DNA from: Candidatus Nitrospira inopinata
Lineage (GTDB): Bacteria > Nitrospirota > Nitrospiria > Nitrospirales > Nitrospiraceae
NCBI RefSeq assembly: GCF_001458695.1
Contig: NZ_LN885086.1
Coordinates: forward strand, 330,001-362,000
Direction: 5' to 3'
Length of the DNA stretch: 32,000 nucleotides
Positions within the stretch are counted from its first letter, which is position 1. Every line of letters begins with the position of its first letter. Position numbers and translations under genes: made by a program. Shown in pieces: positions 7,375-24,926 of this stretch. Under the pieces are notes generated by a model. The model did no database searches and was not told where the DNA came from. It was given only the letters and a program-made list of their open reading frames with translations.

Positions 7375-7537
7375 AACGCTCCTGCTTCCCGCTCCCAAGA
7401 TTCGGAAAAGCCGTCGCCCCATCGTTTTTCCAAGGAGAGGAACTGCTTCTTGGATCGCCTCGCTGCATTGCGGCGACCCAGCGGTTTTAATATCCGGCGG
7501 TCGTTCGACAGGATGTGAGCAGAAACGGCCCCGCCCT

Positions 7538-8932
7538 CTACTCTCCCTGAATCGGCACGTACAGGACGTTCCCCTGCCGATTGACGAGCAGGAGGGCAAG
7601 ATCGGTCGGTTTGAGAGGATCGGCCAGCCGCTGCAAGGTGGAAAAACTCAAGACGGGCTGTCGGTTGAGTTCAAGAATGACGTCGCCCGGCTGAAGACCG
7701 GACACCTCGGCCGGCGCCCCCTCCTCGATATCGGTCACGACGACACCGCTCGTGACGGGCAAGTCCATCTGCCTCGCGAGCGAGACGGTGATGTCATCGA
7801 ACACCACGCCGGAGAGCGGATGCACGGCGGAGGCGACCGACGACGAGAGTTGGGCCTTCTTGGCTCGCTCGCGCGGAGCCTCTTGGATCACCAGTTCGGC
7901 CTGGTGCGGTCTGCCGTCTCGGATGAGATCGATCTGATGTTTGCTGCCGATCGGGGCTTGCGCGATGAGATTGCGCAGATGACCGCTGTCCATGACGTCG
8001 CGGCCGCCGAAACGCACGACCACGTCTCCCCGCTTGAGGCCGGCCCGTTCGGCCGACCCCTTGGGCTGCACGTCCGTCACGATCGCGCCCTTGATATCCG
8101 GCAGGCGGAAAATCTTGGCCAGCATCGGGCTCACGTCCTGCGTCGAGGCTCCGAGAAATCCTCGGACGACCCGACCGGTTTTGAGCAAACTTTGCATCGC
8201 GGCGCGAGCCATGTTGCTGGGAATCGCAAAGCCGACCCCCACGTTCCCGCCGGTGGGGCTCGCGATCGCCGTGTTGATGCCCACCAACTCGCCGTGGATG
8301 TTGACGAGGGCTCCTCCCGAATTCCCCGGATTGATTGGCGCATCGGTTTGGATGAAGTCCTCGAAGTCCGCCACACCGACATCCGCCCGTCCGACGGCGC
8401 TCACGATGCCGAAGGTCACGGTACGACTCAGTCCGAGCGGGCTGCCGATCGCCAACACAAAGTCCCCCACCGCGAGCTTGCTCGAGTCGCCCCAGGTCGC
8501 CGCCGCCAGATTCGTCGCTTGAATTTTCACCACCGCCACGTCGGTTTTCGGATCGCTCGCTACCACCTTCCCCTTGAACTGACGGCGATCAGACAAAATG
8601 ACTTCGACGTCGACCGCGTCGGCCACCACGTGGTTGTTCGTGACGATCAATCCGTCCGGCGAAACGATCACCCCGGACCCTTGGCCATATTGCCGGCGGG
8701 CCGGAGGCTCCTTGAACAGCCCGAACGGTAACGCCTCATCGCTGAACGCCTGGTCGCGCACCACCACGGTGGAGGCGATGCTCACCACCGCCGGAATGAC
8801 CTTGCCGGCGGCGGCCTTCACTTGACTCTGCAAATCCTGTCCACCGGCCGCGCGGACATCCGGCACATCCATCATCAAGCAGGCGAACACAGCCCAACCC
8901 GCTCTCATGCTCCAGACGGCCCATCCATTCAT
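7538..8932 (-). CDS. HtrA/DegP-family periplasmic serine endoprotease with two PDZ domains
   Basis: Catalytic motifs are present: TNNHVV (His), DVAVVK (Asp) and GNSGGALV (Ser). Two PDZ-like segments follow. The start is uncertain: ATG at 8932 or 8908, while the ORF is open to 9094. Confidence 0.9.
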   Translation of the reverse strand: MNGWAVWSMRAGWAVFACLMMDVPDVRAAGGQDLQSQVKAAAGKVIPAVVSIASTVVVRDQAFSDEALPFGLFKEPPARRQYGQGSGVIVSPDGLIVTNNHVVADAVDVEVILSDRRQFKGKVVASDPKTDVAVVKIQATNLAAATWGDSSKLAVGDFVLAIGSPLGLSRTVTFGIVSAVGRADVGVADFEDFIQTDAPINPGNSGGALVNIHGELVGINTAIASPTGGNVGVGFAIPSNMARAAMQSLLKTGRVVRGFLGASTQDVSPMLAKIFRLPDIKGAIVTDVQPKGSAERAGLKRGDVVVRFGGRDVMDSGHLRNLIAQAPIGSKHQIDLIRDGRPHQAELVIQEAPRERAKKAQLSSSVASAVHPLSGVVFDDITVSLARQMDLPVTSGVVVTDIEEGAPAEVSGLQPGDVILELNRQPVLSFSTLQRLADPLKPTDLALLLVNRQGNVLYVPIQGE

Positions 8933-9084
8933 CAACCGGCGCGTGTTCACTGGCCACACTCCCTTTTGATCATCTGGCCCCAGATCCAAATGGCAATGCT
9001 GCGCGAACCTACCATAGGAAACCGACTTCTGCATCATATTCGAGAGAGGCGTTCCTCTGGACAGAGGAGGGAGAACGGGCCCTC

Positions 9085-9918
9085 TTAAAACCACAGCCGC
9101 ACGCCGGCCACAAAACGAAGCTGACTGGGATTGCCGCCCTCGTCTCTCACCAACGTCGCGGTTTCGCCGAAACTTCGATCGATCGAGAATCCGACATAGG
9201 GGGCGAATTCCCGTCGGATCTCATAGCGGAGCCGCAGCCCGAACTCCAGATTGTTGAGGCCGGAGCCGGTTGTAAACCGCTCGACCCGTTGCGCCGCCAC
9301 GTTCGTTTCGAACCGCCCTTGCAGGATCAATCGCTGCGTCAGCAAGAAATCCTTCGTCAACGACAGCCGCCCCGAAACATGACCGCCTTGATCAATGAAG
9401 AGCGCGGCCTCCAGTTCATAATTGTACGGCACGAGGCCCTGGATGCCGATCACACCCAGTCCGCGCGTCACATTCCGTCCGCGGAACTGTTGCGTTTCAA
9501 TGCGCGAGCCGATCTGTACATCGTAGTATTTCGCGATGAACCGGCCGTACAACAGTTGGAAGTCCACGTCGTAGTCGGCCTTGAACGCCGTATCCTGCTG
9601 TCCCTCGCTTTTGAACCACAGCCGGTGATGGTCGCCGCCGTACCATCCGTCGATGTCCCATCGATAATCGTCCCGGCCGGGGCGGGCACCGCCGGCCGGA
9701 CGATATTCCAGCACGTCAATCAGCGTAAACAGATAGGGCCGCTGGTCGTGCACGGGGCTCGGCCAATTCGCCAACGGAGGGGGCAGCGGTATTGGTGGCG
9801 ACAGGGGAGATTCGGTCGATGGTTGTGCGCCGGCATCGGAGGCCAGACCGATCCCCACGAAGCAGGCCACGAAGCAAGCCAGGACAGCCGCCCACGGCCA
9901 TGGCCTCCCAGTCCTCAT
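9085..9918 (-). CDS. copB: Copper resistance protein B (CopB/PcoB outer-membrane protein)
   Basis: The ATG at 9918 overlaps the copA stop (ATGA). There is a signal peptide, and the DYRWDIDGWYGGDHHRLWFKSEG block is typical of CopB. The protein ends in an aromatic residue (RLWF), as beta-barrel proteins do. Confidence 0.85.
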   Translation of the reverse strand: MRTGRPWPWAAVLACFVACFVGIGLASDAGAQPSTESPLSPPIPLPPPLANWPSPVHDQRPYLFTLIDVLEYRPAGGARPGRDDYRWDIDGWYGGDHHRLWFKSEGQQDTAFKADYDVDFQLLYGRFIAKYYDVQIGSRIETQQFRGRNVTRGLGVIGIQGLVPYNYELEAALFIDQGGHVSGRLSLTKDFLLTQRLILQGRFETNVAAQRVERFTTGSGLNNLEFGLRLRYEIRREFAPYVGFSIDRSFGETATLVRDEGGNPSQLRFVAGVRLWF

Positions 9919-11807
9919 GACGGGCTGTTCCGCTCGCCGCCGGCAACCTCGACGACTCTGAACATCCCGGCCTCCATGTGCAACAAGAGATGACAGTGGA
10001 GCGCCCACCGCCCGGGGGCGTCAACCGTCACGGCGACGGAGAGCCGCTCCGCCGGTTTGACGATCACCGTATGCTTACGCGGCAGAAACTCGCCGGCGCC
10101 ATTTTCCAGCTCCATCCACATCCCGTGCAGATGAATCGGGTGCTCCATCATCGTATCGTTCACGAAGACCAGCCGCAGCCGCTCGCCGTCGCGAAGGGGG
10201 ATCGGGGCGGGGGCCTCCGAATACTTCCTGCCGTCGAACGACCAGAGATACCGCACCATGTGGCCGGTGAGATGCAGTTCGATCGACCGTTCCGGCTCCC
10301 GTCGGTCATCCATGGGAGCGAGCCGTTTCAAGTCGGTATAGACCAACACCCGCCGTTCCATTTGATCAAGCCCCGTTCCCGGTTCCATCAGCCGGCTCCT
10401 GGCATATTCGGCTACCATCTGATTACCGGTTCCATGGTCGTCAGGACCATGCCGAACCCACTCCATGCCGACACCGCCAGAGAGTGCCCGACCCGCGACC
10501 ATTCCATGGCCATGCCCCGCGTGACCTTCGTCGGGCGAATGTCCAGGCGATCCGTGCCGAGCCTGTGCCATCCCATGTGACCGGTGCTCGTCACGCCCCG
10601 CATCCATCCCGGCCATGATCATTCCTTCCATCTCCATCTTCATACCCATCCCCATGTCATCCATCGTGCGGAGCGGACGTGGGCGGCGCGGGGGAAGATC
10701 GCCGCTCATACCAGGTCGCGGGGCAAGCGTGCCTCGTGCGTAGCCGCTTCGATCCATCGCCTCGGCGAAAATGGTATAGGCTCGGTCTTCCTCCGGCCGA
10801 ACGATCACGTCGTAGGTCTCAGCCGGCCCCATACGCAGTTCCTCCACCGTGACCGGTTGAACATTCTGCCCGTCGGCCTGCACGACCCTCATGGCGAGCC
10901 CCGGCACCCGCACATCGAAAAATGTCGTGGCCGCCGCATTGATCAATCGCAACCGCACCGACTCGCCGGGCTGAAACAGCCCCGTCCAGTTTCCAGACGG
11001 CGAAAGACCGTTCAGCAGATAGATCAAGGCGGAGCCGGTCACGTCGGCAAAATCCGTCGGGTCCATCCTCATCCAGTCCCACAGCAAATAATCCTGAAGC
11101 GCCGGCCAAAATCCCATCCGTCTCACATCCGACACGAATTCCACCGCCGTTCGTTTTTGAAAGTTGTAGTATCCACTGGTCTTCTTGAGATTGGCCAGAA
11201 TCGTCTCCGGTTCCTCGACACTCCAGTCCGACAACAGCACGACATAGTCACGGTCAGAGCGAACAGGCTCTGGTTCCCGTGGCTCGATGATCAACGGCCC
11301 GTACATCCCCTTCAATTCCTGGCCGCCTGAATGGCTGTGGTACCAATAGGTACCGTTCTGTTGCACCGGAAAACGATAGGTAAAGCTCTCGCCCGGTTCG
11401 ATGCCCGCGAAACTGACGCCGGGAACCCCATCCATCTCGAACGGCAGCAGAATCCCGTGCCAATGAATCGAGGTCGGCTCCCGCAAATGGTTCGTCACGC
11501 GGATCGTAACCTCTTGCCCTTCCTGTAGTCGAAGGAGAGGGCCGGGAACCGTGCCGTTGATCGTCACGGCGGTGCCGGCCCGTCCATCGACCGTGAAGGA
11601 TCGCTCGCCGATCACGAGATCGATCAGCTCGCCGCTCAGGACCGACGGTTGCGTGCCGGCAGAGGGACCACGATGGCTCGCCCGGCCTGCGCACGCCGCA
11701 AGAAGCGACGGGATCGCCGCCAGCAACCCCAGCGCCCCGGCCCGTTTCAGCAGCAGACGTCTCGAAATCCCACCGCTCTCCTCTTCTGCTTCCTCGCGAT
11801 GCCGCAT
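9915..11807 (-). CDS. copA: Copper resistance multicopper oxidase CopA/PcoA (Tat-exported)
   Basis: Trimmed to the ATG at 11807. Twin-arginine signal (SRRLLLKRAGALG). Copper-ligand motifs are HWHG, WYHSH, HPIHLHG and HCHLLLHME. There is an internal Met/His-rich insert (MDDMGMGMKMEMEGMIMAGM...HGHGM). Confidence 0.9.
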   Translation of the reverse strand: MRHREEAEEESGGISRRLLLKRAGALGLLAAIPSLLAACAGRASHRGPSAGTQPSVLSGELIDLVIGERSFTVDGRAGTAVTINGTVPGPLLRLQEGQEVTIRVTNHLREPTSIHWHGILLPFEMDGVPGVSFAGIEPGESFTYRFPVQQNGTYWYHSHSGGQELKGMYGPLIIEPREPEPVRSDRDYVVLLSDWSVEEPETILANLKKTSGYYNFQKRTAVEFVSDVRRMGFWPALQDYLLWDWMRMDPTDFADVTGSALIYLLNGLSPSGNWTGLFQPGESVRLRLINAAATTFFDVRVPGLAMRVVQADGQNVQPVTVEELRMGPAETYDVIVRPEEDRAYTIFAEAMDRSGYARGTLAPRPGMSGDLPPRRPRPLRTMDDMGMGMKMEMEGMIMAGMDAGRDEHRSHGMAQARHGSPGHSPDEGHAGHGHGMVAGRALSGGVGMEWVRHGPDDHGTGNQMVAEYARSRLMEPGTGLDQMERRVLVYTDLKRLAPMDDRREPERSIELHLTGHMVRYLWSFDGRKYSEAPAPIPLRDGERLRLVFVNDTMMEHPIHLHGMWMELENGAGEFLPRKHTVIVKPAERLSVAVTVDAPGRWALHCHLLLHMEAGMFRVVEVAGGERNSPS

Positions 11808-12236
11808 GGCGCTTGACCCTCTGTTCCTTCCTGACAGGTGACCATGTTGACGCCGCATTCTACTCTTTCGGGGCCGGCAGAGATCCGCCCCGCCACAAGG
11901 CATAGAGCACCGGAATCACCAGCAATGTCAGCACGGTCGAGCTTATCATGCCGCCGATCATCGGCGCGGCGATGCGTTTCATCATGTCAGCGCCGGGGCC
12001 GGTGGTCCCCATGAGAGGGAGCAAGCCACCCATGATGGCGACGACGGTCATCATCTTGGGTCGCACGCGTTGCACCGCCCCCTCCATGATGGCCTCGCGC
12101 AGATCCTGCGCCGTGGCCAGGCGCCCTTCGCCCATACGCCGCTCAGCGGCTTCATCGAGATAGACCAGCATCACCACGCCCGTCTCCGCCGCCACGCCGG
12201 CCAGCGCAATGATTCCCACCCACACCGCCACGCTGA
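11553..12236. repeat. Direct repeat copy 1 (684 bp): copA 5' end + intergenic + cusA 3' end
   Basis: Base-for-base identical, by eye, to 19930-20613 at a constant offset of 8377 bp. The ORF-track peptides 11948..12163 and 20325..20540 are identical. Confidence 0.95.
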
Positions 12237-15018
12237 GATTGTAGCCCAGGAAATGGAGATACCAGATGGCTCCGATCGCAGCGAAGGGGACAGAAAGTAT
12301 TACGATCAGCGATTTCGCGAGCGAACGGAAATTGAGGTAGAGGAGCAACAGGATCACAGCCAGGGTCGCAGGAACCACCATTTTCAGCCGCTCTTCCGCC
12401 CGCATCAGATGTTCGTATTGCCCGGTCCAAATCAAGCGGTAGCCGGGCGGAAGCGTGACCAGCTCACGAACCACTCGTTGGGCCTCTTGCACATAGCCGC
12501 GCAAATCGCGGCCACTGACCGACACCGACACGAGCCCCACCAATGTGCCTGCCTCATCCGCGATCGACGGCGGCCCCTGGGTGATGACGAGATCTGCAAT
12601 GTGGCCAAGGGGAATTTGCGCACCGGTCGGTGTGGGAATGCGCACCCGCTTGAGCCGCTCCGGATCATCACGCAGCTCGCGCTTGTAGCGGATGATGACC
12701 GGGTACCGCTCCCGCCCCTCGACCGTCGTGGTCACGGTTTCTCCCCCGATAGCCGACGTGATGACCGCTTGCACATCTCCCACCGTCAAGCCGTAGCGAG
12801 CCGCCTCGCGCCGATTGATGATGAGATCCACGTAATAGCCTTCGTTCAGCCGCTCGGCGAAGGCGCTCGTCGTGCCGGGCACGGTCGCCAAGGCCCGCTC
12901 GATCTCGATACCGATTCGCTCGATCGTCTTTAAGTCAGGCCCCAGCACCTTGATCCCGACCGGACTCCGGACACCGGTCGTGATCATCTCCGTCCTGGTC
13001 TGGATCGGCATCCACCAGATGTTTGGAAATCCCGGAATGCGGAGCTTGGCATCCATCTCATCCAGTAAGCGATCCCAAGTCATGTCGGGTCGCCACTGGG
13101 TCTCTGGCTTCAATGTCGCGGTGATCTCGGCCATTCCGACGAAGGCCGGGTCGGTGGCCGTCGGCGCTTTTCCCATTTTGCCGAACACCCGTTCCACTTC
13201 CGGGAAGGTCATGAGCAACTGATCCTGGACCTGCAACACCTTGGCCGCTTCCGGGATGGAGAGGCCAGGGACGGTGGTCGGCATATAGAGGATGGTCCCC
13301 TCGTTCAGCGGCGGCATGAATTCGGCGCCGAGGCGCATGAACACCGGCACCGTGGCGGCCACGGACACGACCGCCACCCCCACCGTCAGCCACCGGATCC
13401 GCAATGCGCCCGCAAGAATGGGCCGATACAGGGCGATGAGCCACCGGTTCAGCGGGTTCTCGCGTTCCGCTCGGATACGTCCGCGAAGCAGAACCACCAT
13501 GAGTACCGGTGCCAATGTCACCGAGAGCGCGGCGGCAAAGAGCATCGAAAAGGTCTTGGTAGAAGCCAACGGTGCGAACAGTCGCCCTTCCTGCGCTTCC
13601 AAGGCGAAGATCGGCAGGAACGACACGGCGATCACCAGCAGCGAAAAGAACAGGGGCCGCCCGACCTCTTTTCCCGCCGCGACGATGATTTCCGTTCGGT
13701 TGCTTTCACGCCCGCCCGCCCCAGGCGCGCCGGGACGCGCCTCTTTCCACAAGGGAGATTGCTCCAACCGTTTATGGGCATTCTCGACCATCACGATCGC
13801 GGCATCGACCATCGCGCCGATGGCGATAGCGATGCCACCGAGTGACATGATGTTGGAGGTGATCTTCAAATAGGCCATCGGGATAAATGCGAGCAACACG
13901 GCCACCGGCAGGATCAGGATGGCCACTAACGCACTTCGAAAGTGACCTAGGAAGACCACCGCGACCAGGCCGACGATCACACTTTCTTCGAGCAGTTTCT
14001 CGCGGAGGACGGCGATCGCGCGACGAATGAGATCGGACCGATCGTAGGTAGGGACTATGCGTACGCCTTGGGGTAAGGCCGGGGCGATGTCTTCCAGCCT
14101 TGCTTTGATCCGCTCGACCACGGCAAGCGCGTTTTCTCCGGCCCGCATGATCACGATCCCGCCGACCGTCTGGCCCTTGCCGTCCAGTTCGGCAATGCCA
14201 CGACGCTGGTCCGGCCCAAGTTGGACATGAGCAATATCGCGAATGAAGATAGGCGTGCCTCGTCCATCCGTCCCGACCGGAATCAGTTCAATCTCATCAA
14301 CCGAGCGTAGGTAGCCACGTCCGCGGATGACATACTCGGTGCCGGCCATCTCCAACACTCGGCCGCTCACCTCCGCATTGCTCTTGCGGATCGCCTCGAT
14401 CACGGCTTGAATCGGGAGTCGATACGCCGCCAACGTGTTCGGATCCACTTCGATTTGGTACTGTTTGACAAATCCGCCGATCGATGAGACCTCCGCCACG
14501 CCGGGCACACTCTCCAATTGGTAACGCAGATACCAATCCTGAAGGCTGCGGAGCTGCGCCAAATCGTAGGTCCCGGATTCATCCACCAAGGCATACTGAT
14601 AGACCCACCCGACCCCGGTTGCATCCGGCCCCAAGGTCGGCGTGACACCGATTGGCAACTTGCCGGTGAGCCTCTGGAGATATTCGAGGACACGACTTCT
14701 CGCCCAGTACAAGTCTGTTCCATCTTCGAAGATCACGTAGACATAGGAAACTCCGTATTCCGAGACACCGCGGACCCGTTTGACCCTCGGACCAGCGAGC
14801 AGAGATGTCACGAGCGGGTAGGTAATTTGGTCTTCCATGAGAGTGGGGCTGCGCCCTGGCCACTCGGTGTAGATGATCACTTGGACATCGGACAGATCAG
14901 GAATCGCATCGAACGGAACCTGGAACAATGCCCAGACTCCCCAGGCTGCGAGCAGCGACACACAGAGGATAACTAGAACCGGATTGCGGGCGCTTCCTTC
15001 AATGAGTCGCGCGATCAT
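11860..15018 (-). CDS. cusA: CusA-type heavy-metal (Cu/Ag) RND efflux pump
   Basis: 1052 aa with full RND topology. The TM4 signature MSLGGIAIAIGAMVDAAIVMVENAHKRLE is almost identical to E. coli CusA. Confidence 0.95.
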   Translation of the reverse strand: MIARLIEGSARNPVLVILCVSLLAAWGVWALFQVPFDAIPDLSDVQVIIYTEWPGRSPTLMEDQITYPLVTSLLAGPRVKRVRGVSEYGVSYVYVIFEDGTDLYWARSRVLEYLQRLTGKLPIGVTPTLGPDATGVGWVYQYALVDESGTYDLAQLRSLQDWYLRYQLESVPGVAEVSSIGGFVKQYQIEVDPNTLAAYRLPIQAVIEAIRKSNAEVSGRVLEMAGTEYVIRGRGYLRSVDEIELIPVGTDGRGTPIFIRDIAHVQLGPDQRRGIAELDGKGQTVGGIVIMRAGENALAVVERIKARLEDIAPALPQGVRIVPTYDRSDLIRRAIAVLREKLLEESVIVGLVAVVFLGHFRSALVAILILPVAVLLAFIPMAYLKITSNIMSLGGIAIAIGAMVDAAIVMVENAHKRLEQSPLWKEARPGAPGAGGRESNRTEIIVAAGKEVGRPLFFSLLVIAVSFLPIFALEAQEGRLFAPLASTKTFSMLFAAALSVTLAPVLMVVLLRGRIRAERENPLNRWLIALYRPILAGALRIRWLTVGVAVVSVAATVPVFMRLGAEFMPPLNEGTILYMPTTVPGLSIPEAAKVLQVQDQLLMTFPEVERVFGKMGKAPTATDPAFVGMAEITATLKPETQWRPDMTWDRLLDEMDAKLRIPGFPNIWWMPIQTRTEMITTGVRSPVGIKVLGPDLKTIERIGIEIERALATVPGTTSAFAERLNEGYYVDLIINRREAARYGLTVGDVQAVITSAIGGETVTTTVEGRERYPVIIRYKRELRDDPERLKRVRIPTPTGAQIPLGHIADLVITQGPPSIADEAGTLVGLVSVSVSGRDLRGYVQEAQRVVRELVTLPPGYRLIWTGQYEHLMRAEERLKMVVPATLAVILLLLYLNFRSLAKSLIVILSVPFAAIGAIWYLHFLGYNLSVAVWVGIIALAGVAAETGVVMLVYLDEAAERRMGEGRLATAQDLREAIMEGAVQRVRPKMMTVVAIMGGLLPLMGTTGPGADMMKRIAAPMIGGMISSTVLTLLVIPVLYALWRGGSLPAPKE

Positions 15019-15084
15019 TCCTTCTCACCCCTCCTCGACCTGCCAAGACAGGCTGTTTTCCCGTTAGATGCCCGCTTTTCCCGG

Positions 15085-16866
15085 CTACAGGCCTCCCACG
15101 GCGACCGAGAACCGAAACCGCTCGACGATAGGCGGTTGGCCCGGCACCGTCACGTTGACCGTCACCACCCACGTGCCGGCCATACCGAACAGCACCGTGC
15201 CTTCGTAGAGCCCGTCATTGATGTGGTGCGCCGGCGCCTTGGAATCGATCATGCCCGGCATCGGCATGGTGTAGACGAAGAGGACTTGCGCATTCGTCAC
15301 CGGCTTGCCGGTCCGATCGGTCAATTTGAGTTTGAGCAGGGCTTCACCGGCCTTGGGCGTTTCGGGAAGAGTCCTGAAGTTCAGGATGTATCCGTCCGCC
15401 ACGCGAGTTTCAGAGACGGCTTTCCCTGAACCCGAGTCCATACCCGACATACCGCTCATGTCCTTCATCCCTGGCATTTCTTCCATGCCCTTCATACTCT
15501 CCATACCTTTCATCCCTTGCATGCCGGACATGCCTTCCATCCCTTCCATCTTGGCTTCATAGGCACCGCGCATTTGCCAGTCGCCCATGCCGATTCGACC
15601 CATCATGGCTTGCATGCTAGACGCCGAGGTCAATTTGCTCTCTGCGTCCAACAAGAAATTGGCCGAGGTGACGACCCGATCGCCCTCTTTAAGCCCTTCG
15701 AGAATTTCCACACGATCCCGCCCTTGTCGGCCAAGTTTGACGGCCATAGGTTCATACCGGCCTTCGCCCCGATCTATAAACACAAGCTGGCGAAGCCCGG
15801 TGTCCAACACAGCCTCCTTTGGCATCACCAAGGTCTTGCCCATATCGGTCCGTACGACCACGTTTCCGTACATGCCCGGCTTCAATGTCAGCTTGGGATT
15901 CGGCAATTCCAGCCGCACCCGTACGGTGCGGGCTCCTGTATTGAGCGTCGGGGACACATAAGCCACCTTGCCGTGGAATGATTTGCCTGGGTAGGCGGCA
16001 AAGGTGACCGTGACCGGCAGGCCGACTTTCACGGCCGCCATTTCTGATTCATAAATCTCGGCATGGATCCAGACCGTGGAGAGATCCGCGATCTCATACA
16101 GGATCGTGCCAGGCTCCACATATTTGCCCGGCAACGCCTCCCGCCTCATCACAATTCCAGACGACGGCGCATAGACCGTCAGAACCGGGCTGCCCTGACC
16201 TCGACGCTCCAGGGTCGCGATCTGCTCATCGGTCACATCCCAGAGGCGAAGTCGTTCTCGCGCGCTCGCCACGAGCGCAGCAGCGTGCTCCTTCGCGTCG
16301 GGTAGCGGGCTGGCAGCCAATTGAGCCTGCGCCCTGACCGCCAAAAGGTATTCTTCCTGGGTGGCAAGGAGATCCGGCGAGTAGAAGGTCAAGAGCGGTT
16401 CGCCTTTTCGAACCGGTTGACCGGTCGAATTGACGAAGACCTCTCTCACCCACCCCGATGTTTTCAGCGTGACTTGCGTAAATCCACGTTCATCGTAGCC
16501 GACCGTTCCAACCGCGCGGATCTCTTGCTCCAACATCGCGTAACCTACCGGAGCACTGCGGACGCCGATCGACTGCCTTACCACAGCCGGAACGGTCACC
16601 GCCACGGAGGGAACATCGGATGTGTCCCCTCCAGGGCCCATGCCCTTCATGGCCGTCGTTCTCTCCACCGACACCCCCTGCCTGTCTCCCCTGCTCGTCG
16701 CTCCCTCTATTTCTTCCATGGACATGCCGTCCATCCCATGGCCCCTCATCCCGGACATACCGTCCATTCCCCTATAGGCGGCGAAGAATCCGGCTATGGC
16801 CCCGACGAGCAAACCGGCCGCTGTACTCCAGACAGCAAGCCCTGCTCCGCGTCTATTGCGACTCAT
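15085..16866 (-). CDS. cusB: CusB-like RND periplasmic adaptor with Met-rich segments and a C-terminal YtkA/FixH-like domain
   Basis: Start set at the ATG at 16866 (GGAGGA plus 6 nt). Membrane-fusion-protein core (YAPSSGIVMRR...VWIHAEIYE...RVRLELPN). Met-rich tracts lie near the N-terminus and after the core. The last roughly 110 aa resemble the YtkA-like fold. Confidence 0.85.
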   Translation of the reverse strand: MSRNRRGAGLAVWSTAAGLLVGAIAGFFAAYRGMDGMSGMRGHGMDGMSMEEIEGATSRGDRQGVSVERTTAMKGMGPGGDTSDVPSVAVTVPAVVRQSIGVRSAPVGYAMLEQEIRAVGTVGYDERGFTQVTLKTSGWVREVFVNSTGQPVRKGEPLLTFYSPDLLATQEEYLLAVRAQAQLAASPLPDAKEHAAALVASARERLRLWDVTDEQIATLERRGQGSPVLTVYAPSSGIVMRREALPGKYVEPGTILYEIADLSTVWIHAEIYESEMAAVKVGLPVTVTFAAYPGKSFHGKVAYVSPTLNTGARTVRVRLELPNPKLTLKPGMYGNVVVRTDMGKTLVMPKEAVLDTGLRQLVFIDRGEGRYEPMAVKLGRQGRDRVEILEGLKEGDRVVTSANFLLDAESKLTSASSMQAMMGRIGMGDWQMRGAYEAKMEGMEGMSGMQGMKGMESMKGMEEMPGMKDMSGMSGMDSGSGKAVSETRVADGYILNFRTLPETPKAGEALLKLKLTDRTGKPVTNAQVLFVYTMPMPGMIDSKAPAHHINDGLYEGTVLFGMAGTWVVTVNVTVPGQPPIVERFRFSVAVGGL

Positions 16867-18172
16867 GACCATTCCTCCCTTCTTCACTGCGCCCGCTCAG
16901 ATCGACTCCGATCACTTGTTCGAGTTCCGCGAGACGATGTTCCCGCTCAACCAGCACTCGGTAGTACTCCTCGTGAAATCTCTGCCAGGTCCGTTGAGCA
17001 TCGATCAGATTCAGAATCCCTCCTTTCCCCGCTCGATACCCCACGCGTGCCGCTTCAAGGTTCTGCGCGGCCTGTGGCAGGATCGTCGTGTGATACAACC
17101 GGGCCACCTGTTCGTTCGCGCGGATCCTGGCGAGAAGGTCTTTGACCTGAAAACGAGTCAAGTTTTCTAACGTGCGCCGTTGTGCCCGCGCGGCCTCGAC
17201 CGACGCCGCGGCTTCCTGAACGTTCGCCTCATACTTCGACTTGGTCCAAAACGCGAAGGGGATGGTCATGGCCACGTAGGCGCCAAAGCCGTCATTGGCC
17301 TGAACGTTCTGGAAGCGCTGCACTTGCACGTTGAAGTCGGGATAATACTGACGCTGGGCTAGGGCGTAAGAATGCTCGTGCTGTTGGACAGCCAGCTCGG
17401 CGGCTTTCAACTCCGGTCTGGCGTTCAGCGCAAGGCTGGACAAATCGTCGATGGTTACGCCAAGCGTCATCAGAGGCGGCTCTTGAGGCACGCCCAACGG
17501 TGACAGGGGATCACGGGCCATGATCGTATTCAGCAGCGCCGCGGCGGTTTCGCGACGCTGTTCCAGCACAGGACGCTGCTGGTGGAGCAGGGAGAGTTCA
17601 ACATGGGCCTTGAGCACGTCGGCCTGCGATCCCGTTCCCGCACGGAACTTTGCATTGGCGACCTCGACGAACTGCCTGAGCAATTGAACCTGTTCATGAT
17701 GAATCTGGATTGCCTTGCGTGCGAGAAACAGATCGTAGTACGCCTGCTTGAGTCGGACGATCAACTCCCGTTCCTTCGCGCGCAGCGCCTGCTCAGCGAT
17801 CTCGGCCGATCGACGGGCCACTTGCTCTCTCAGGACGAGTTTTCCGGGAAAGGGAAATGCCTGGGACAATCCGATGATGGTGTTCTCCGCGCGACCGAGA
17901 TTAAAAGACTGGGGGACATTCCACCAATGAACCGACAGGATCGGATCCTCCAACGAAAGCGCCGCCGTCACTCGTTTCGTGACGGCTTCCCATTGTTTGC
18001 GCGCCGCCACAAGTTCGGGATTTCTCGCCAAAGCTTCATGAATCAAATCCGGTAACACCAAAGGCGGCCGGTCGGTTTGATCGGCGGCAGAAGCGACATG
18101 GCGCGCACCCGTCCAACAACTCAAGCTCACAACCGTGATGGCAAGTAACGGAAATCGAATCGTACGAGCCAT
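16853..18172 (-). CDS. cusC: TolC-family outer-membrane factor (CusC-like)
   Basis: Trimmed to the ATG at 18172 (GGAGGA plus 7 nt). It has a signal peptide and two OEP-type coiled repeats. It sits upstream of cusBA, and its 3' end overlaps the cusB start. Confidence 0.85.
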   Translation of the reverse strand: MARTIRFPLLAITVVSLSCWTGARHVASAADQTDRPPLVLPDLIHEALARNPELVAARKQWEAVTKRVTAALSLEDPILSVHWWNVPQSFNLGRAENTIIGLSQAFPFPGKLVLREQVARRSAEIAEQALRAKERELIVRLKQAYYDLFLARKAIQIHHEQVQLLRQFVEVANAKFRAGTGSQADVLKAHVELSLLHQQRPVLEQRRETAAALLNTIMARDPLSPLGVPQEPPLMTLGVTIDDLSSLALNARPELKAAELAVQQHEHSYALAQRQYYPDFNVQVQRFQNVQANDGFGAYVAMTIPFAFWTKSKYEANVQEAAASVEAARAQRRTLENLTRFQVKDLLARIRANEQVARLYHTTILPQAAQNLEAARVGYRAGKGGILNLIDAQRTWQRFHEEYYRVLVEREHRLAELEQVIGVDLSGRSEEGRNGHESQ

Positions 18173-18319
18173 AGGATGGTCCTCCACAAGAGCTATTCCG
18201 CCCGCGTCTATCGCGAACCTCAACTCCCGTCCGCTACGGAAGTGACGATGGAATAAGCTCGGACTGAGTGCGGGGCAGATGAAACGATGGCGAAACGGTG
18301 TAAGGGAAAACCGGCGAGA

Positions 18320-18694
18320 TCAGATCCGCAGCACGGTGCTTGCCAGAGAATGATGAGGAGGGGAACTCGATTCGAGAGAATGGGGGGAGTGGAGGATACG
18401 TTCGAGTTGATGGCTCACTGTTGGAAGTACCGGCACAATGTGATCCGCCGACCAATGATGATCTTTGTGCCAGAAAGCCGACTGAGATAAGGACTCCACC
18501 CCCAGTGTTTTGAAGGCATCGCACACCTGCCGAACCGGCTGCTCCACGGGAGTGGAACAACCGTTGGCCATCGAAGCATCGGTGAGGCCTGGCAACGGCA
18601 GGAGACAGGCGTAGGCGTTGAAACTAAACGTCAACAGAAACACCGCAATCGTTGCGGCAAGGAACGACCGTGAGTGACAGAAACGCTTTCTCAT
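18320..18694 (-). CDS. Small secreted Cys/His-rich hypothetical protein heading the cus cluster
   Basis: Signal peptide MRKRFCHSRSFLAATIAVFLLTFSFNAYA. His-rich tail (HKDHHWSADH, HSPHSLESSSPPHH). It occupies the position that small accessory proteins such as CzcI hold in other RND operons. Confidence 0.5.
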   Translation of the reverse strand: MRKRFCHSRSFLAATIAVFLLTFSFNAYACLLPLPGLTDASMANGCSTPVEQPVRQVCDAFKTLGVESLSQSAFWHKDHHWSADHIVPVLPTVSHQLERILHSPHSLESSSPPHHSLASTVLRI

Positions 18695-18700
18695 GCGATC

Positions 18701-18730
18701 AGCTTATCCCTCGTCCGTCTCGCGTGTCAA
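18701..18730 (-). promoter_or_regulatory. Candidate sigma-70 promoter (TTGACA-N18-TAAGCT) for the 18694 ORF, implying a near-leaderless transcript
   Basis: On the reverse strand, TTGACA is at 18730-18725 and TAAGCT at 18706-18701. The -10 element ends 6 nt before the ATG at 18694. Confidence 0.3.
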
Positions 18731-18738
18731 CGGCACGG

Positions 18739-19200
18739 TCACGTCACGGCAAGACCGTGCATGATCACAGCCCCATTCGCCTCGTCCATCTTAAGAAACT
18801 CTGCCTCGACCATGAATGACCCACGAGCCTCTTGACTGACGACGAGGAAAGGGATGCGGAAACGCCCCCAGACGGGCCTTCTGAGCGTGCGAGCGTGGAG
18901 CAGAAAAGGGGTCGGGAATCTTTTCTCTGAGCCTTGCGTATGCATCACGGCGATCCACCTGAGCACCTCGCTGAGCACCTCGGAGAACTTCCCCTCGCGG
19001 CGGGGTCACAGTAGCAGATGCCAGTGTTAGACACAAGGGAATAAACCGCGATCCGGATACGGATCGCAGCAACGGCTTCGGCTACGATCTTCTCAAAGGC
19101 TATGTCGTCTGCCGGCTTCTCAAACAACAGCAAGCACGCGATGCGGCGATTGAGCACATGACGCGCAAGAGTTCCGGCGGCAAGACGCGGGCGGCGGCGT
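18739..19200 (-). pseudogene. Degraded REP-associated tyrosine transposase (RAYT / IS200-like Y1) gene
   Basis: The reverse-strand frame reads RRRPRLAAGTLARHVLNRR...FEKIVAEAVAAIRIRIAVYSLVSNTGICYCDP. This is collinear with the RAYT consensus (RRPRL..HV..RGN..., Y.....L......G..IHAYCLMSNHVHLL..P), but the HUH motif is lost (SNTGICY). The continuation (LSEVLRWIAVMHTQ..., GRFRIPFLV) lies in another frame. A perfect 12-bp tandem duplication is at 18959-18982. Confidence 0.5.
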
Positions 19201-19260
19201 AGTCGGGGCTCTACCTGACCCAGTCTCGCTCTTCCAGAAATGATCCCGGCCCCTTTTGTT

Positions 19261-19440
19261 TCAGGGATTGCTCATTATCTTGAGGATGCGCTTCGCAAGA
19301 TGTTCATTGATCTCAGTATGGCGAGGAACCGGCTGGGAAACCCTGGTGACAGGATTGTGATACCAATCATGCTTTCCGCCATGACGAATGAGCACGCAAC
19401 CGCTGGCTTCGAGCTGTCGAATAAGGTCTTTCCTCTTCAC
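19261..19440 (-). CDS. hicA: HicA-family mRNA interferase toxin
   Basis: 59 aa, below the ORF-track cutoff. The GTG at 19440 overlaps the hicB stop (GTGA). Translation is VKRKDLIRQLEASGCVLIRHGGKHDWYHNPVTRVSQPVPRHTEINEHLAKRILKIMSNP, which is typical of HicA/YcfA. Confidence 0.8.
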   Translation of the reverse strand: MKRKDLIRQLEASGCVLIRHGGKHDWYHNPVTRVSQPVPRHTEINEHLAKRILKIMSNP

Positions 19441-19628
19441 TGGAAAGTCAGCTCGGCAAGCTTCCGAACTCCAGGGATTTCACCGCTGGTGAGATCAAGA
19501 TACAGATCGCGAAGGTGGGTTTGTAGGTCTTCGAGAGACTCCCCTTGAGTCCAGTAATCAGGGTAGTCCTGCAGATAGCCGAGCCACTTGTCCTGCTCTT
19601 GCCAATAGATATATTTGATTGATTCCAT
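19437..19628 (-). CDS. hicB: HicB-like antitoxin (short form)
   Basis: MESIKYIYWQEQDKWLGYLQDYPDYWTQGESLEDLQTHLRDLY matches the HicB N-terminal fold pattern (...W.G...D.P...TQGE(S/T)LEE). It lies immediately upstream of hicA and is translationally coupled to it. Confidence 0.7.
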   Translation of the reverse strand: MESIKYIYWQEQDKWLGYLQDYPDYWTQGESLEDLQTHLRDLYLDLTSGEIPGVRKLAELTFQ

Positions 19629-19929
19629 GGTGGCTATTATAGCTAGGTTCCGAACGCCCGAAAAGCCAAGAAAGTGGTCATGAATGGGATGGGAGACCTA
19701 AACATACGTGAAAGCTAAAAGGGAGGGGCTGGAGTATTTCTGTGTCCGGAGGAACGACGGTGACAGCGCCGCTCGTGCAGATCGAGATGCTGAAAAAACT
19801 CCCGGCCTTTCCTATCTATCCTGTTTTATGACAGCCGCATCCGGTGGAGCTGGGAGCCGCGGAGGTTTCAAGGTTTCTGACCCCGCGGGCCGTGGACCGC
19901 CGGCAAGAGAGCCACAACCTATCGGCCAC

Positions 19930-20184
19930 GCCGTTGATCGTCACGGCGGTGCCGGCCCGTCCATCGACCGTGAAGGATCGCTCGCCGATCACGAGATCGA
20001 TCAGCTCGCCGCTCAGGACCGACGGTTGCGTGCCGGCAGAGGGACCACGATGGCTCGCCCGGCCTGCGCACGCCGCAAGAAGCGACGGGATCGCCGCCAG
20101 CAACCCCAGCGCCCCGGCCCGTTTCAGCAGCAGACGTCTCGAAATCCCACCGCTCTCCTCTTCTGCTTCCTCGCGATGCCGCAT
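19930..20184 (-). pseudogene. copA 5' fragment (first ~85 codons), part of repeat copy 2
   Basis: The peptide MRHREEAEEESGGISRRLLL...GTAVTING is identical to the CopA N-terminus. It then runs into unrelated sequence (VADRLWLS...). Confidence 0.9.
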
Positions 20185-20236
20185 GGCGCTTGACCCTCTG
20201 TTCCTTCCTGACAGGTGACCATGTTGACGCCGCATT

Positions 20237-20613
20237 CTACTCTTTCGGGGCCGGCAGAGATCCGCCCCGCCACAAGGCATAGAGCACCGGAATCACCAGC
20301 AATGTCAGCACGGTCGAGCTTATCATGCCGCCGATCATCGGCGCGGCGATGCGTTTCATCATGTCAGCGCCGGGGCCGGTGGTCCCCATGAGAGGGAGCA
20401 AGCCACCCATGATGGCGACGACGGTCATCATCTTGGGTCGCACGCGTTGCACCGCCCCCTCCATGATGGCCTCGCGCAGATCCTGCGCCGTGGCCAGGCG
20501 CCCTTCGCCCATACGCCGCTCAGCGGCTTCATCGAGATAGACCAGCATCACCACGCCCGTCTCCGCCGCCACGCCGGCCAGCGCAATGATTCCCACCCAC
20601 ACCGCCACGCTGA
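20237..20613 (-). pseudogene. cusA 3' fragment (last ~125 codons), part of repeat copy 2
   Basis: The C-terminal peptide VAVWVGIIALAGV...LPAPKE is identical to CusA. Upstream of it, the 229-aa ORF is unrelated sequence. Confidence 0.9.
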
Positions 20614-20937
20614 AGGGAGCTTCACCGCTGACTGACTGATTGCTACACCTCCTCAACATAGCTACGCAGATCGCCCACGGCGGCACCGACATGCTCGACC
20701 CCCATGGCAGCCATGGTCTTGGGCCGCCATGGCCTTGGCCATCGAGAACGCACTCGTTCGTCATGAACGAGAGTGAGCGCCTCATCAGACCGATCGGATC
20801 ACCTCTCCTGTTCTGACATTCAGTTTGCCTTGCCCTGGCGTAGGCGGAGCCACGCAAGAACCTGGGGCACACGCGCAGTTCCAGGCCCAGGATCGCACCC
20901 GACGTGAGCAAGGCACAACAAGGCACAAGGAGCGAAA

Positions 20938-21408
20938 GTGCGAACGGACCCGATTCAGATCAAGCCAGGCGAGGCGGGACGGCTCATCTATGATCTGGAG
21001 CGGAGATTAGGCAGCGTCGTCCTGCCGAATGCATTGGATCGGAAGTATCCCCAGGCGAGCCGAGAGGGGGGCTGGCAGTGGGTCTTCCCAGCCTCGAAGT
21101 ATTACACCCATCCGGTGACGCGTGAGCCGTACAGACATCCCCTGCATGAATCCGTCCTGCAGAAGGCCGTCAAAGAAGCCGCCCGCAAGGCTGGGCTCGC
21201 CAAGCCGGCCAGTTGCCACACGTTTCGCCATTCCTTGGCAACTCACCTCCTGAAGGATGGCTACGACATCCGCACAGTCCAAGAGCTCCTTGGGCATAAG
21301 GATGTGCATGCCGTCATGATCGACACGCATGTCCTGAATCGAGGTGGACGTGGGGTCTGCAGCCCCGCAGACCGGCTGGGACAAGGATTAAGCCCTTCGC
21401 AGCCATAA
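20938..21408 (+). pseudogene. intI: Integron integrase (IntI) C-terminal fragment, catalytic Tyr replaced by Asp
   Basis: [25 protein letters not shown] is the IntI-specific insertion. [12 protein letters not shown] and LLGH boxes are present. The last box reads [18 protein letters not shown] where IntI and Xer recombinases have M-I-Y-T-H-V. About 170 N-terminal residues, including box I, are absent. Confidence 0.75.
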
Positions 21409-21459
21409 ATGGAACTACGCCGGTCCGTATAGCACGCCATCGTCGTGCCGTGGAGAAGG

Positions 21460-21488
21460 TTGACAAGTGATGGAACATGCGAAAGAAT
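21460..21488 (+). promoter_or_regulatory. Candidate sigma-70 promoter TTGACA-N17-AAGAAT reading into the cassette array
   Basis: TTGACA at 21460-21465 and AAGAAT at 21483-21488, between the intI stop and the first cassette. Confidence 0.3.
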
Positions 21489-21569
21489 CACCCGCCGGTG
21501 TGTAATCCATCTATGCGTACTATGCCGGTCAGTATGCTCAATAGTTATGTGTCACAGGGAATGAGAACA

Positions 21570-21917
21570 ATGAATATCAAGACCATACTTATTCTTCTTT
21601 TAGCCCTTAGCGTCGTTGGCTGCGGCACACGCCGCCCCGATCCTGCGACGCGCGCTCAAACGGAGCTTGTTGGCATGTCGAAGAAGGAATTACTTTCTTG
21701 TGCCGGCGTACCAATTCGACAGACTCAACTCGAAGACATGGAGTTCTTGGTATTCAAGACCGAAAGCTTATTTGATGGCAAACATACCTACTGCTAAGCA
21801 ACCGTAGCGTTAAAGAACGGGCGTGTTGAAAAGATCAGTTATGAGTACCGCTATGCGATACTTACCAAACGACTGCGCGAATGTGGCTTGATCGTACAGC
21901 GTTGTTTGACTCCATGA
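21570..21917 (+). pseudogene. Cassette-borne small lipoprotein interrupted by an in-frame TAA (21795-21797)
   Basis: MNIKTILILLLALSVVGCG is a lipobox signal. After the TAA the same frame continues for 39 codons (ATVALKNGRVEKISYEYRYAILTKRLRECGLIVQRCLTP) to a TGA at 21915-21917, 7 nt before attC-1. Confidence 0.6.
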
Positions 21918-21924
21918 CTTTCAC

Positions 21925-21987
21925 ACATAACACGTCACTCAAGCGGACGCGCCAAACAAGGGCGCGCCGCCTAGCTTTGCGTTTATT
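21925..21987 (+). other. attC site 1
   Basis: ACATAAC-ACGTCACTCAAGCGGACGCGCC-AAACAAG-GGCGCGCCGCCTAGCTTTGC-GTTTATT. The central GGACGCGCC/GGCGCGCC stem and the imperfect outer arms give an R''...R' layout. Confidence 0.6.
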
Positions 21988-21989
21988 AC

Positions 21990-22357
21990 TTGTCCGTTTT
22001 GTGGGTCGGCGGTTGGCGCGGCCGGATGGTGAAGAAGGCGGGTTGTTTTTTCTACGGCCGGTTGGCCAGCCCCTGGGCGGCGCATTCCTGACGCGCGGTC
22101 CGCGCGCTTGATTTCTTCACCTCCAGCGCGCACCGTGACGCGGCTCAGGCCAGTACTCTCAGGACCAATTGCACGCCGCCGCGCCCCAGCTGGAGCGCCA
22201 ACAGGCCCGCAAACCGGCGTCGGGCTTTCTCGTCCAAACTCGTTATGCCCCGATTGATGGCCTGATGCGCACACGCCACTTGGCCATACGGATGCTCAGC
22301 ACAGGCAGCACGCGCACAAGGATAGAGACGACAACGCGATCTATTCTTCTTGCTCAT
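21990..22357 (-). pseudogene. Frameshifted HTH / transposase N-terminal remnant (ISAzo13-like)
   Basis: LDEKARRRFAGLLALQLGRGGVQLVLRVLA, then in another frame GLSRVTVRAGGEEIKR...MRRPGAGQPAVEKT...DPQNGQ. This parallels what I recall of ISAzo13-family N-termini (L.E+.RRL.AA.EA.ALGRGG...V...TG.SR.TI..G..EL....RR.GGGRK......DP). It ends at the attC-1 boundary. Confidence 0.35.
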
Positions 22358-22365
22358 GGCTCAAG

Positions 22366-22480
22366 ACCCAACGCTCGCCGGTCCCCCGGCGCACGGTCAG
22401 ACCGTGAGCTTACTCCAAAAGGGACAAGTTATTCCTTGACAAATCCTTATGGACAGAAAATTCGTGGTGAGTGGTTAGAC
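22366..22480 (+). other. Possible long, poorly paired attC or cassette boundary in front of the R-M genes
   Basis: ACCCAAC (a perfect RYYYAAC) is at 22366-22372. GTTAGAC is at 22474-22480 and is identical to the R' core of attC-3. Only the outer roughly 9 nt of the arms pair (GCTCGCCGG versus the reverse complement ACTCACCAC). An inner perfect hairpin CACGGTC-A-GACCGTG is off-centre. Confidence 0.25.
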
Positions 22481-22539
22481 GCATAACCGATAGCCCTGTA
22501 TACTTGTCGTAATTACCCTGTCCTTGGGAGCGTGGAGCA

Positions 22540-23969
<1,430 letters not shown>

Positions 23970-23970
<1 letters not shown>

Positions 23971-24926
23971 TGCCCGCGCCCCCTTACCGCGAGCATCTTC
24001 AATCCAGCAGTGATCTTGTAACGACCTATGAAGCCACCCGCGCCGGTTTCGTGACACTTGCACTTGAAAAGAACCGACGGGCTACTCCTCACGTCGCAGA
24101 AGCCAGAGCATTACAAGAGGCCGCATCTAAGGCCAGAACGCCCGCCGACCTGCTGGCTATCAAGGGCATCGAGTCGGGCCTGCTAACTGCGGCAGGGCTA
24201 TCTGATAAATCTCTCATCCATTTACTGCCAGATGACAAAGCGGAAGCCATCAATGGCCTCATCAAGAATTTTCTCGAGCCAGCAGGGACAAAATTTGTTG
24301 AAGAACTGGTGTTTAGGTTTTTGTTGACTCGTGGTGACGCGCTCGGCGGCTCAATGCGTAACATCGGCGGTGCATTGGCGCAGAGAAAACTTACCCGTGC
24401 CATCATTTCAACGCTGACGATTGCTGGTATTAGGTATAAGTGGCAACACTCAAAGACCAAGAAATGGGCTGACATGACCGACGATGATTCGGAAATAGAG
24501 TTATCTTTGCGCGGGTTGAGTTGGGAAAGCGGAGGCAAGAGCCGCACCTTGATTTACAACCTGACCGTGCCTCTGGTTAAGAATAACGTGGATATGTGCT
24601 TGTTCAATCTCAACCCGGAGGAACTGGAAGCTACTGCGTACAAATCCGCCAAGTCATATATTGCTCTTGGCGAACTGAAGGGAGGAATAGACCCCGCAGG
24701 CGCAGACGAGCATTGGAAAACTGCACGAGCCGCCCTCGACCGTATCCGCGAAGCCTTTTCCAAGGCGAGACATTCGCCGCGCACTTTCTTTGTTGGCGCG
24801 GCGGTCGAGAAGAAGATGGCAGACGAAATTTGGGGTCAATTGAAGAAGGGTCTTCTCACCAATGCCGCCAATTTGAACGAGCCGAATCAGATAGCATCAA
24901 TTTCCCGTTGGTTATGTACGCTGTAA
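23970..24926 (+). CDS. Putative type II restriction endonuclease (PD-(D/E)xK-like)
   Basis: The ATG overlaps the methyltransferase stop (TAATG), with GGAGA 8 nt upstream. The candidate catalytic pattern is VD(24591-24593)MCLF ... 26 aa ... GELK(24672-24680)GG. I do not recognise any other domain. Confidence 0.5.

Follow-up and report, generated by a model that had tools for sequence, protein, structure and literature searches.

Introduction

Direct repeats that bracket a chromosomal segment can serve as substrates for homologous recombination of the RecA type, by which the segment would be deleted, amplified or homogenised. This R-X-R architecture, in which direct repeats (R) of several hundred bp flank a segment (X), is that of the RecA-dependent duplication-amplification units of Salmonella and E. 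coli and of the amplifiable units of Streptomyces. Here, we describe an arrangement of this type in the comammox bacterium Candidatus Nitrospira inopinata, in a 32-kb window (contig NZ_LN885086.1, positions 330,001 to 362,000; "the window" designates this whole stretch of DNA, and all coordinates are numbered from its first base). A 684-bp sequence spanning the boundary between the copper genes cusA and copA is found there in two identical copies, one in its native place (R1) and one as a dead fragment (R2), on either side of a segment that carries the genes of the CusCBA copper/silver efflux pump. This R-X-R is a genuine chromosomal segmental duplication, and the identity of its two copies probably reflects recent gene conversion of an old duplicate. 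As in the duplication-amplification units, a single-R deletion is predicted, and here it is met with in nature as an allele; likewise, the cargo enclosed by the repeats is an operon for stress resistance, in this case metal efflux. Unlike in these units, no amplified array is demonstrated here, the repeats derive from the downstream boundary of the cargo itself, of which they are a fragment, and not from insertion sequences or rRNA genes, and the structure in N. inopinata has been stable over about ten years of culture sequencing runs.

The locus can also be compared with three other systems. In concerted evolution, as known for tufA/tufB and for rRNA operons, the copies are identical within a genome, orthologues in sister strains are diverged and both copies carry the lineage's own alleles, which is likewise the pattern seen here. 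The difference lies in the fact that one partner is non-functional, so that conversion would "refresh" a pseudogene. Campbell-type integration leaves the same R-X-R topology, and its reversal yields R plus a circle; in our case, however, X bears neither a replicon nor an integrase or att site, the homologous stretch is a gene-internal fragment and the circle would already have to hold one of the novel junctions. Finally, chromosomal integron cassette arrays similarly associate an IntI gene with small modules (toxin-antitoxin, restriction-modification) in a strain-variable island, but here only a truncated integrase is present, neither attI nor attC was found and the duplicated piece is a gene fragment and not a cassette. 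The R-X-R thus belongs neither to the integron cassettes nor to the composite transposons or integrative elements, as it lacks those of their defining features that we tested for. The mechanism is not new: the locus adds one more case to a familiar class of features, and its interest is local, lying in comammox genomics and copper physiology. A literature search returned no paper describing this repeat.

The repeat and its junctions

In a direct comparison, positions 11553-12236 (R1) and 19930-20613 (R2) are equal at 684 of 684 bases, on the same strand and at an offset of 8377, as stated in a preliminary description of this DNA made from the sequence alone. Identity ends sharply at all four edges, with not one base more alignable on either side, and a repeat scan returned R as the sole long repeat within the window. 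The gene content given in that description also agrees with the gene coordinates. R is composed of codons 1-85 of copA, whose start is at 11807, of the 52-bp intergenic region (11808-11859) and of the 3′ end of cusA. The cusA share, described before as the last ~125 codons, amounts to the last 124 full codons plus 2 nt; it opens at ...SVAVWV and includes the stop codon at 11860-11862.

R1 lies in the native cusA-copA context and is unbroken with the rest of both genes. R2 is an ectopic dead fragment enclosed by two novel junctions, J1 (19929/19930) and J2 (20613/20614). As first described, it is cut within coding sequence at both edges, after CopA residue ~85 and at CusA ...SVAVWV, and this generates two chimeric open reading frames (ORFs). 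The one across J1 (19816..20184, minus strand, 122 aa) consists of CopA residues 1-85 followed by 37 unrelated codons, and that across J2 (20237..20692, minus strand, 151 aa) of 26 unrelated codons followed by the CusA C-terminus (ACR_tran profile positions 911-1019). They correspond to CUQ65354.1, a hypothetical protein of Ca. N. inopinata, and to CUQ65355.1, respectively. These two entries, annotated as "hypothetical" or "membrane" proteins, are therefore by-products of the duplication junctions. Between the copies, X (12237..19929, minus strand, 7693 bp) contains the 5′ 927 codons of cusA, cusB, cusC, a small ORF of 124 codons (ORF124), a Y1-transposase remnant, hicA, hicB and 300 bp of upstream sequence.

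At J1 and J2, a structure scan gave no inverted-repeat or hairpin signal above background, and no core-site-like GTTRRRY motif was seen by eye, no dedicated attC model having been applied. An Rfam search returned nothing, and promoter and terminator scans gave nothing above background. R holds copA 5′, intergenic and cusA 3′ sequence only, without any insertion sequence or transposase, which sets it apart from the ends of a composite transposon.

The R-X-R in independent assemblies

Exact-protein look-ups recovered 19 contigs from NCBI, JGI and Logan, 18 of which are 100% identical to the window, and more than 15 independent assemblies agree with it in this way. CUQ65354.1, CUQ65355.1 and the cusA product CUQ65347.1 are all found on the 3,295,117-bp record of Ca. 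N. inopinata. The entire R-X-R is present on one 681-kb contig of GCA_041694755.1 (L001/L011). The path from the truncated integron integrase (IntI′) that lies beyond J2, through R2 and J1 to hicB, is crossed by this contig as well as by JGI contigs L002 and L009, and the native path cusA-R1-copA is crossed at 100% identity by L104. Both junctions and the native context being thus reproduced, the R-X-R reading proposed in the preliminary description is correct.

The way in which short-read contigs end points in the same direction. They stop inside R at each edge, after 30 bases for Logan (k-mer length k=31), 63 for two NCBI drafts and 127 for JGI. Breaks located exactly k-1 bases into R are those of a true sequence with two left and two right contexts, and a chimeric assembly is very unlikely. 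One JGI contig, L003, follows the path cusA-R-hicB...cusA-R-copA, as a tandem triplication would, and the ends of a 4231-bp contig from a relative (L021, see below) overlap within R. We considered both as proof of amplification or of circles and rejected them as such, since path-extension assemblers yield such walks at any R-X-R loop.

Alleles in close relatives

The closest homologue of the IntI′ fragment is located on a 305-kb contig (L020) of the Nitrospira metagenome-assembled genome (MAG) GCA_024331025.1. This contig aligns with window positions 7547-12236 and then, through one shared R, with 19930-21382. Its gene order is degP-copB-copA (full length)-R-J2-IntI′ with nothing in between, and it is devoid of cusCBA, hicAB and J1. 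Its R differs from that of the window at 9 of 684 positions, a divergence similar to that of the neighbouring DNA, and there is no divergence step at the edges of R.

Three other contigs carry parts of the R-X-R. L004, a contig of the Logan set (ERR14790953), leads from R2 across J1 and the whole of X into R1, with 52 differences from the window over the 6430 positions of the X backbone and 18 over 635 positions of R2. The last kb of its full-length cusA and the start of its R1 belong to a foreign allele that is ~17% divergent; its copies are clearly different, and the k=31 assembly therefore passed through R unbroken. L021, from the NNA23 MAG GCA_024331045.1, reads R-J1-hicB-...-ORF124-cusC′ fused to cusA-R. 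A 4266-bp deletion (13733-17998) at a GGCGCGC microhomology joins cusC codon ~58 to the middle of cusA, so that the pump is inactivated in that strain. The X of L021 shows 28 differences from the window over 3428 positions, and the contig ends overlap by exactly 127 bp within R in a cycle-like manner. L022, a 10.3-kb contig of the same MAG, reads IntI′-J2-R, and this J2-side R differs from the cusA-side R of L021 at 8 of 383 positions. L105, finally, has the native order cusA-R-copA-copB; it equals the window down to about 13500 and is 5-25% divergent beyond.

The foreign alleles of the 3′ third of cusA differ between L004 (~17%) and L105 (5-25%, also in copAB), and both switch from near-identity at ~13300 (window 12169-13300). 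This suggests a shared recombination breakpoint or hot spot inside cusA.

The window strain has both junctions; J1 recurs in L004 and L021, and J2 in L020 and L022. Each sits at the same nucleotides wherever it is found and therefore arose once. Strains sharing a junction are 0.8-1.3% divergent from the window, the X of those bearing J1 being about 0.8% away, with 1-3% for the J2-bearing contigs L020 and L022. Four allele classes are observed: R-X-R with identical copies, R-X-R with diverged copies, R-X′-R with cusCBA destroyed, and R only. The comparison with related genomes that the preliminary description had called for has brought out R-only, diverged-copy and X-deleted alleles. No strain with J1 and without J2 was found among those sampled. 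The empty site (19929 joined to 20614) had no exact match in the genome and metagenome contig collections, and a pattern scan for J1 gave 0 matches in a metagenome contig collection that does not cover the samples behind the JGI contigs bearing J1.

At the level of gene content, the CusCBA pump varies among close strains, being intact, internally deleted or absent, and CopAB is kept in every strain where that region was recovered. This variability bears on the copper tolerance of comammox strains in physiology studies and in engineered systems.

Age of the ectopic copy and homogenisation

For each copy of R, the cusA portion was translated and its variable sites were set against 54 CusA orthologues of other Nitrospira (numbers in the substitutions below, e.g. 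Y351S, are nucleotide positions within R). The copies that count as dead are the lone R of L020, R2 in L022 and in L004, and, since cusA is already disrupted there, the two R pieces of L021. They carry Y351S, I362M, I421L, K427Q, D436N, L472V, V513G, D552A, R586G and I658L, all at residues that are invariant or nearly so in the 54 outgroup proteins. L472V is common to L020, L004-R2, L021 and L022, and I362M to L020, L004-R2 and L022. Both copies of the window have the consensus residue at all ten decay sites. The live foreign cusA end of L004, for its part, has only synonymous differences from the window, at six sites.

The presence of J1 and J2 in diverged strains, together with the decay of the ectopic copy in these strains, indicates that the ectopic copy is old and that it and its two junctions are older than the split between the N. 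inopinata-like strains sampled. R differs at 9 to 18 sites between strains and at 0 of 684 within N. inopinata, where a divergence of ~0.8% in X leads to an expectation of at least about 5.5 differences in 684 bp (Poisson P about 0.004). In other words, the paralogues within the genome are closer to each other than are the orthologues between strains sharing the duplication, as in concerted evolution. Since the old fragment decays elsewhere and yet R2 has the sequence of a working gene in N. inopinata, its identity with R1 is best seen as secondary, through gene conversion or an equivalent process. Judging from these comparisons of sequences, we consider recent gene conversion of an old duplicate to be the best explanation of the zero divergence, with a probability of about 0.7. 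R1 would have overwritten the decaying R2 recently in N. inopinata, in a non-reciprocal manner and over at least R positions 119-662, either by gene conversion or by a round of unequal crossover followed by collapse; this direction and these mechanisms are inferred from the allele patterns. The window alleles at R positions 119, 472 and 662 were first read as derived. For position 472 the outgroups overturned this reading: the conserved Leu is that of the window, and Val, carried by the other strains, is derived.

The preliminary description held that zero divergence meant a very recent event or an assembly artefact. This dichotomy is not supported, as the junctions exist in strains that are 0.8-1.3% away, the copy is decayed there and, as far as assemblies can show, the crossing of both junctions excludes an artefact. 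A perfect repeat need not be young: here, an old duplicate would have been kept identical by conversion, providing a small, naturally occurring example of sequence exchange between a live gene and the dead fragment derived from it. Conversion in the reverse direction may also carry pseudogene mutations into the working cusA and copA, and this may have taken place in NNA23, whose cusA-side R has pseudogene-type residues.

Origin and behaviour of the duplication

An unequal or intramolecular crossover between the copies would delete X and give an R-only allele such as that of L020, and the reciprocal event could amplify X. The consequences of recombination foreseen in the preliminary description, excision or amplification of X with copAB left intact, are thereby borne out for the first part, the loss of X with copAB kept being the natural allele of L020; for amplification there are only the assembler-ambiguous hints of L003 and L021. 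We consider the R-only allele of L020 to be a probable secondary loss. Indeed, NNA23 has the ParE-type flank of L020 and carries J1, so that losing X in L020 is no less parsimonious than gaining it. As for the founding event, we rank first, without strong evidence and at slightly less than even odds, a history in two steps: X+R would have been duplicated in tandem, which made J1, and a deletion reaching from the island into the cusA copy upstream would then have made J2. Two separate deletions within an older duplicated cluster are an unlikely alternative route to the same structure.

The two copies of R could also be an illusion of assembly, by a chimeric join or by one repeat consensus pasted twice. 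R is indeed longer than short reads, drafts break at it (L005, L006, L012) and L003 takes the cusA-R-hicB path. Against this, the junctions are crossed not only in independent assemblies (L001, L002, L009) but even where differing copies remove the ambiguity (J1 in L004 and L021, J2 in L020 and L022), and no assembly disagrees at any base of R, when random picking of bubbles would give disagreement; we regard an artefact as highly improbable. Hardly more credible is an R-only chromosome in N. inopinata, with R+X present either as a circle of its own or in a variable array of tandem copies. The assembly graph, in which the upstream unique sequence U′ leads to R, X to R, R to X and R to the downstream sequence D, fits this as well as the linear order, L021 is a cycle at k=127 and L003 reads cusA-R-hicB; however, contigs link IntI′-R-hicB (L001, L002, L009) and cusA-R-copA (L104, L001), the closed genome has the genes in line, and the loop handling of assemblers accounts for L003 and L021. 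Even lower stands site-specific mobility, in which the unit would have been moved by the Y1 transposase or, as a cassette, by the neighbouring integron integrase; we hold this to be extremely improbable. A remnant of IntI is found 324 bp away from J2, its cassette-side orientation matches hicBA and X contains a Y1_Tnp remnant, but the integrase lacks profile positions 1-186 and is below its family cutoff, all that is left of the Y1 gene is an N-terminal stump, and both junctions fall within coding sequence, where neither a GTTRRRY core-like site nor a hairpin was seen and Rfam gave no match.

Other explanations accept the linear R-X-R and differ on its history. If the R-X-R had arisen a short time ago in this lineage, the absence of differences in 684 bp would need no further process, and the many runs from the N. 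inopinata culture show a clonal lineage. We find such a recent duplication improbable, because the same J1 is in L004 and L021, whose X is ~0.8% away from the window, the same J2 is in L020 and L022 (1-3%) and the ectopic copies of those strains share pseudogene-type substitutions; recombination would have had to spread the junctions into strains already holding the old remnant at the same place. A stronger competitor, rather unlikely in our view, is that an old deletion made J2, the L020 state being ancestral, and that X+R was later regained from a related donor, creating J1, by homology-facilitated illegitimate recombination or by Campbell-type integration of a circle. The L020 state does exist, R2 is demonstrably an old pseudogene and the locus is an exchange hot spot, where the cassettes next to IntI′ differ and L004 and L105 carry mosaic alleles of cusA/copAB. 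This scenario nevertheless needs an illegitimate joint in a homologous copA segment, or a pre-formed circle with J1. Moreover, the window and L020 show no divergence step at the edges of R, NNA23 with the ParE-type flank of L020 carries J1, and gene conversion would still be required afterwards for the identity of the copies.

Several points weigh against an old duplicate that was recently converted. The allele patterns are reticulate, and some shared variants could stem from recombination between strains and not from ancestry; the shared junctions themselves might conceivably have moved between strains by recombination in this mosaic region. L021 and L022, binned in one MAG, may be from different strains, as their R disagrees at 5 of 182 overlapping positions. 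R-only may be ancestral or derived relative to R-X-R, and neither a parental empty site nor an unduplicated arrangement was found in the contig collections searched. Lastly, the assemblies are compatible with one or two hidden single-nucleotide polymorphisms (SNPs) between the copies or with a minor population having other arrangements; bubble-popping in short-read assemblers could mask 1-2 SNPs, and strict identity is therefore slightly less robust than near-identity.

A more dynamic behaviour of the locus is doubtful and, to our mind, quite unlikely: R+X would be an actively cycling copper-efflux module, with R-only, single-copy and tandem or circular (R+X)n forms arising continually in N. 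inopinata-like populations. The cycle-like contig L021, the path of L003 and the R-only MAG are consistent with such a module, L003 and L021 being assembler-ambiguous. If true, cycling would mean copy-number plasticity of CusCBA in a comammox organism with a copper-dependent ammonia monooxygenase, and conversion with the dead copy would be both a homogeniser and an entry route for pseudogene mutations into cusA and copA.

The native cop/cus operon

All genes of this region are on the minus strand. A degP-like protease (7538-9094) is followed by copB (9085..9918), coding for the outer-membrane copper resistance protein B (PF05275, 2.3e-70; 277-aa gene call). copA (9915..11807) encodes a copper-resistance multicopper oxidase of the Pseudomonas type (TIGR01480, 808.7 bits) with three Cu-oxidase domains, 630 aa long as called in public assemblies. 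cusA (11860..15018) encodes an RND permease of 1052 aa (ACR_tran, 1e-234; CUQ65347.1, named CusA/SilA by its sources), cusB (15085..16866) a membrane-fusion protein (HlyD_D23, 1.3e-79) and cusC (16853..18172) an outer-membrane factor (OEP, 2.2e-43). Besides the usual membrane-fusion domains, CusB has a YtkA-like domain (PF13115, 3.4e-14) at its C-terminus.

A CusC search of genome contigs returned 80 Nitrospira loci with orthologues at ≤77% identity, N. inopinata itself not being among them. ORF124-cusC-cusB-cusA is a conserved four-gene unit across these 80 loci. copAB directly follows cusA in L058, L074 and L098, and the native cusA-copA adjacency is found in these three loci and in L105. 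As ORF124-cusCBA is conserved in other Nitrospira, in some of them with copAB directly after it, R1 is the native copy. The native operon is thus ORF124-cusCBA-copAB, and R occurs a second time 7.7 kb upstream, next to the remains of an integron integrase. By contrast with this operon, the accessory portion of X, made up of the Y1 stump, hicAB and the J1 flank, has no counterpart in the 80 other Nitrospira loci.

ORF124 (18320..18694, minus strand) encodes a small protein of 124 aa with a hydrophobic N-terminus, for which no Pfam or NCBIfam family match was obtained. Its position is conserved: orthologues with 45-78% identity lie directly upstream of cusC in nearly all of the 80 loci. CusF-like chaperones often occupy the position upstream of cusC. 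On the basis of this gene order, the cus operon of Nitrospira may have in ORF124 a fourth, as yet uncharacterised component.

A further fragment of copA was noted outside this operon. In L103 (GCA_019636815.1, 8001-8207), a 68-aa ORF homologous to the CopA N-terminus is stranded beside a copper P-type ATPase, which indicates that copA pieces recur in Nitrospira metal-resistance regions.

Accessory elements and the surrounding island

Within X, a stretch at 18948..19200 (minus strand), labelled a RAYT pseudogene in the preliminary description, has no direct match in Pfam (PF01797 included), NCBIfam or PDB. Exhaustive HMMER searches gave 155 homologues, aligned to their residues ~2-60, and 10/10 full-length homologues carry PF01797 (Y1_Tnp). 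By this transitive homology, the stretch is the N-terminal stump of an IS200-like/RAYT-type Y1 transposase gene. The label is thereby upheld at the level of the Y1 family, through its homologues and not by a profile of its own, the RAYT subclass being putative, and with homology over ~60-80 N-terminal residues only, the stretch is a family remnant and not a functional member. A 14-nt inverted pair, AAAAGGGGTCGGGA and TCCCGGCCCCTTTT (93% complementary), lies on both sides of the stump at 18904-18917 and 19244-19257, and a perfect 12-bp tandem duplication, CTGAGCACCTCG x2, is found at 18959-18982, directly downstream of its homologous part. The inverted pair and the tandem duplication may be the remains of the ends of the Y1 element.

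Next to it are hicA (19261..19440, minus strand), a 59-aa toxin gene with a PF07927 match (4.6e-11), and a putative hicB-like antitoxin gene (19437..19628, minus strand, 63 aa) that overlaps it by 4 nt. The hicBA label given before stands for HicA; HicB has a UPF0150-like match (E 0.017) that is below the cutoff, and is called mainly by position.

Beyond J2, IntI′ (20938..21408, plus strand) is a truncated integron integrase of which the C-terminal ~40% only is present. It covers profile positions 187-315 of 315 in TIGR02249 with 179 bits against a cutoff of 265, and also matches PF00589. Lacking its N-terminal half and scoring below the family cutoff, it does not amount to an intact integron integrase. 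The distance from IntI′ to J2 is 324 bp without family assignment, and this stretch has no homologue in the 80 other Nitrospira loci. The N-terminal half of the integrase (profile positions 1-186) is absent from every frame of 20614-20937, and its truncation point is therefore not at J2.

Further on, a BsoBI-type restriction-modification pair of lower G+C precedes a second RND system. The presence of IntI′ and this lower-G+C neighbourhood place R2 at the edge of an accessory island. The flank of R2, which the preliminary description did not mention, is a truncated integron integrase within a hypervariable island. Positions 21383-25815 (G+C about 0.50) contain a small lipoprotein-like ORF, the BsoBI-type methylase/endonuclease pair and part of a DUF4136 gene. 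L020 and L022 have instead a ParE/Phd toxin-antitoxin pair and an IS3-type HTH_Tnp_1 fragment, and 21383-25815 is a strain-variable, cassette-like slot.

On the other side of the cop genes, a block of 6.9 kb (595-7546) is missing from L020, in which positions 1-594 (99.7% identity) are joined almost directly to 7547 onward. This block encodes an ECF sigma factor, a ChrR-type cupin anti-sigma factor, a DUF4331 protein, a TPR protein and a HupE/UreJ protein, and it is a second presence/absence polymorphism near the cop genes.

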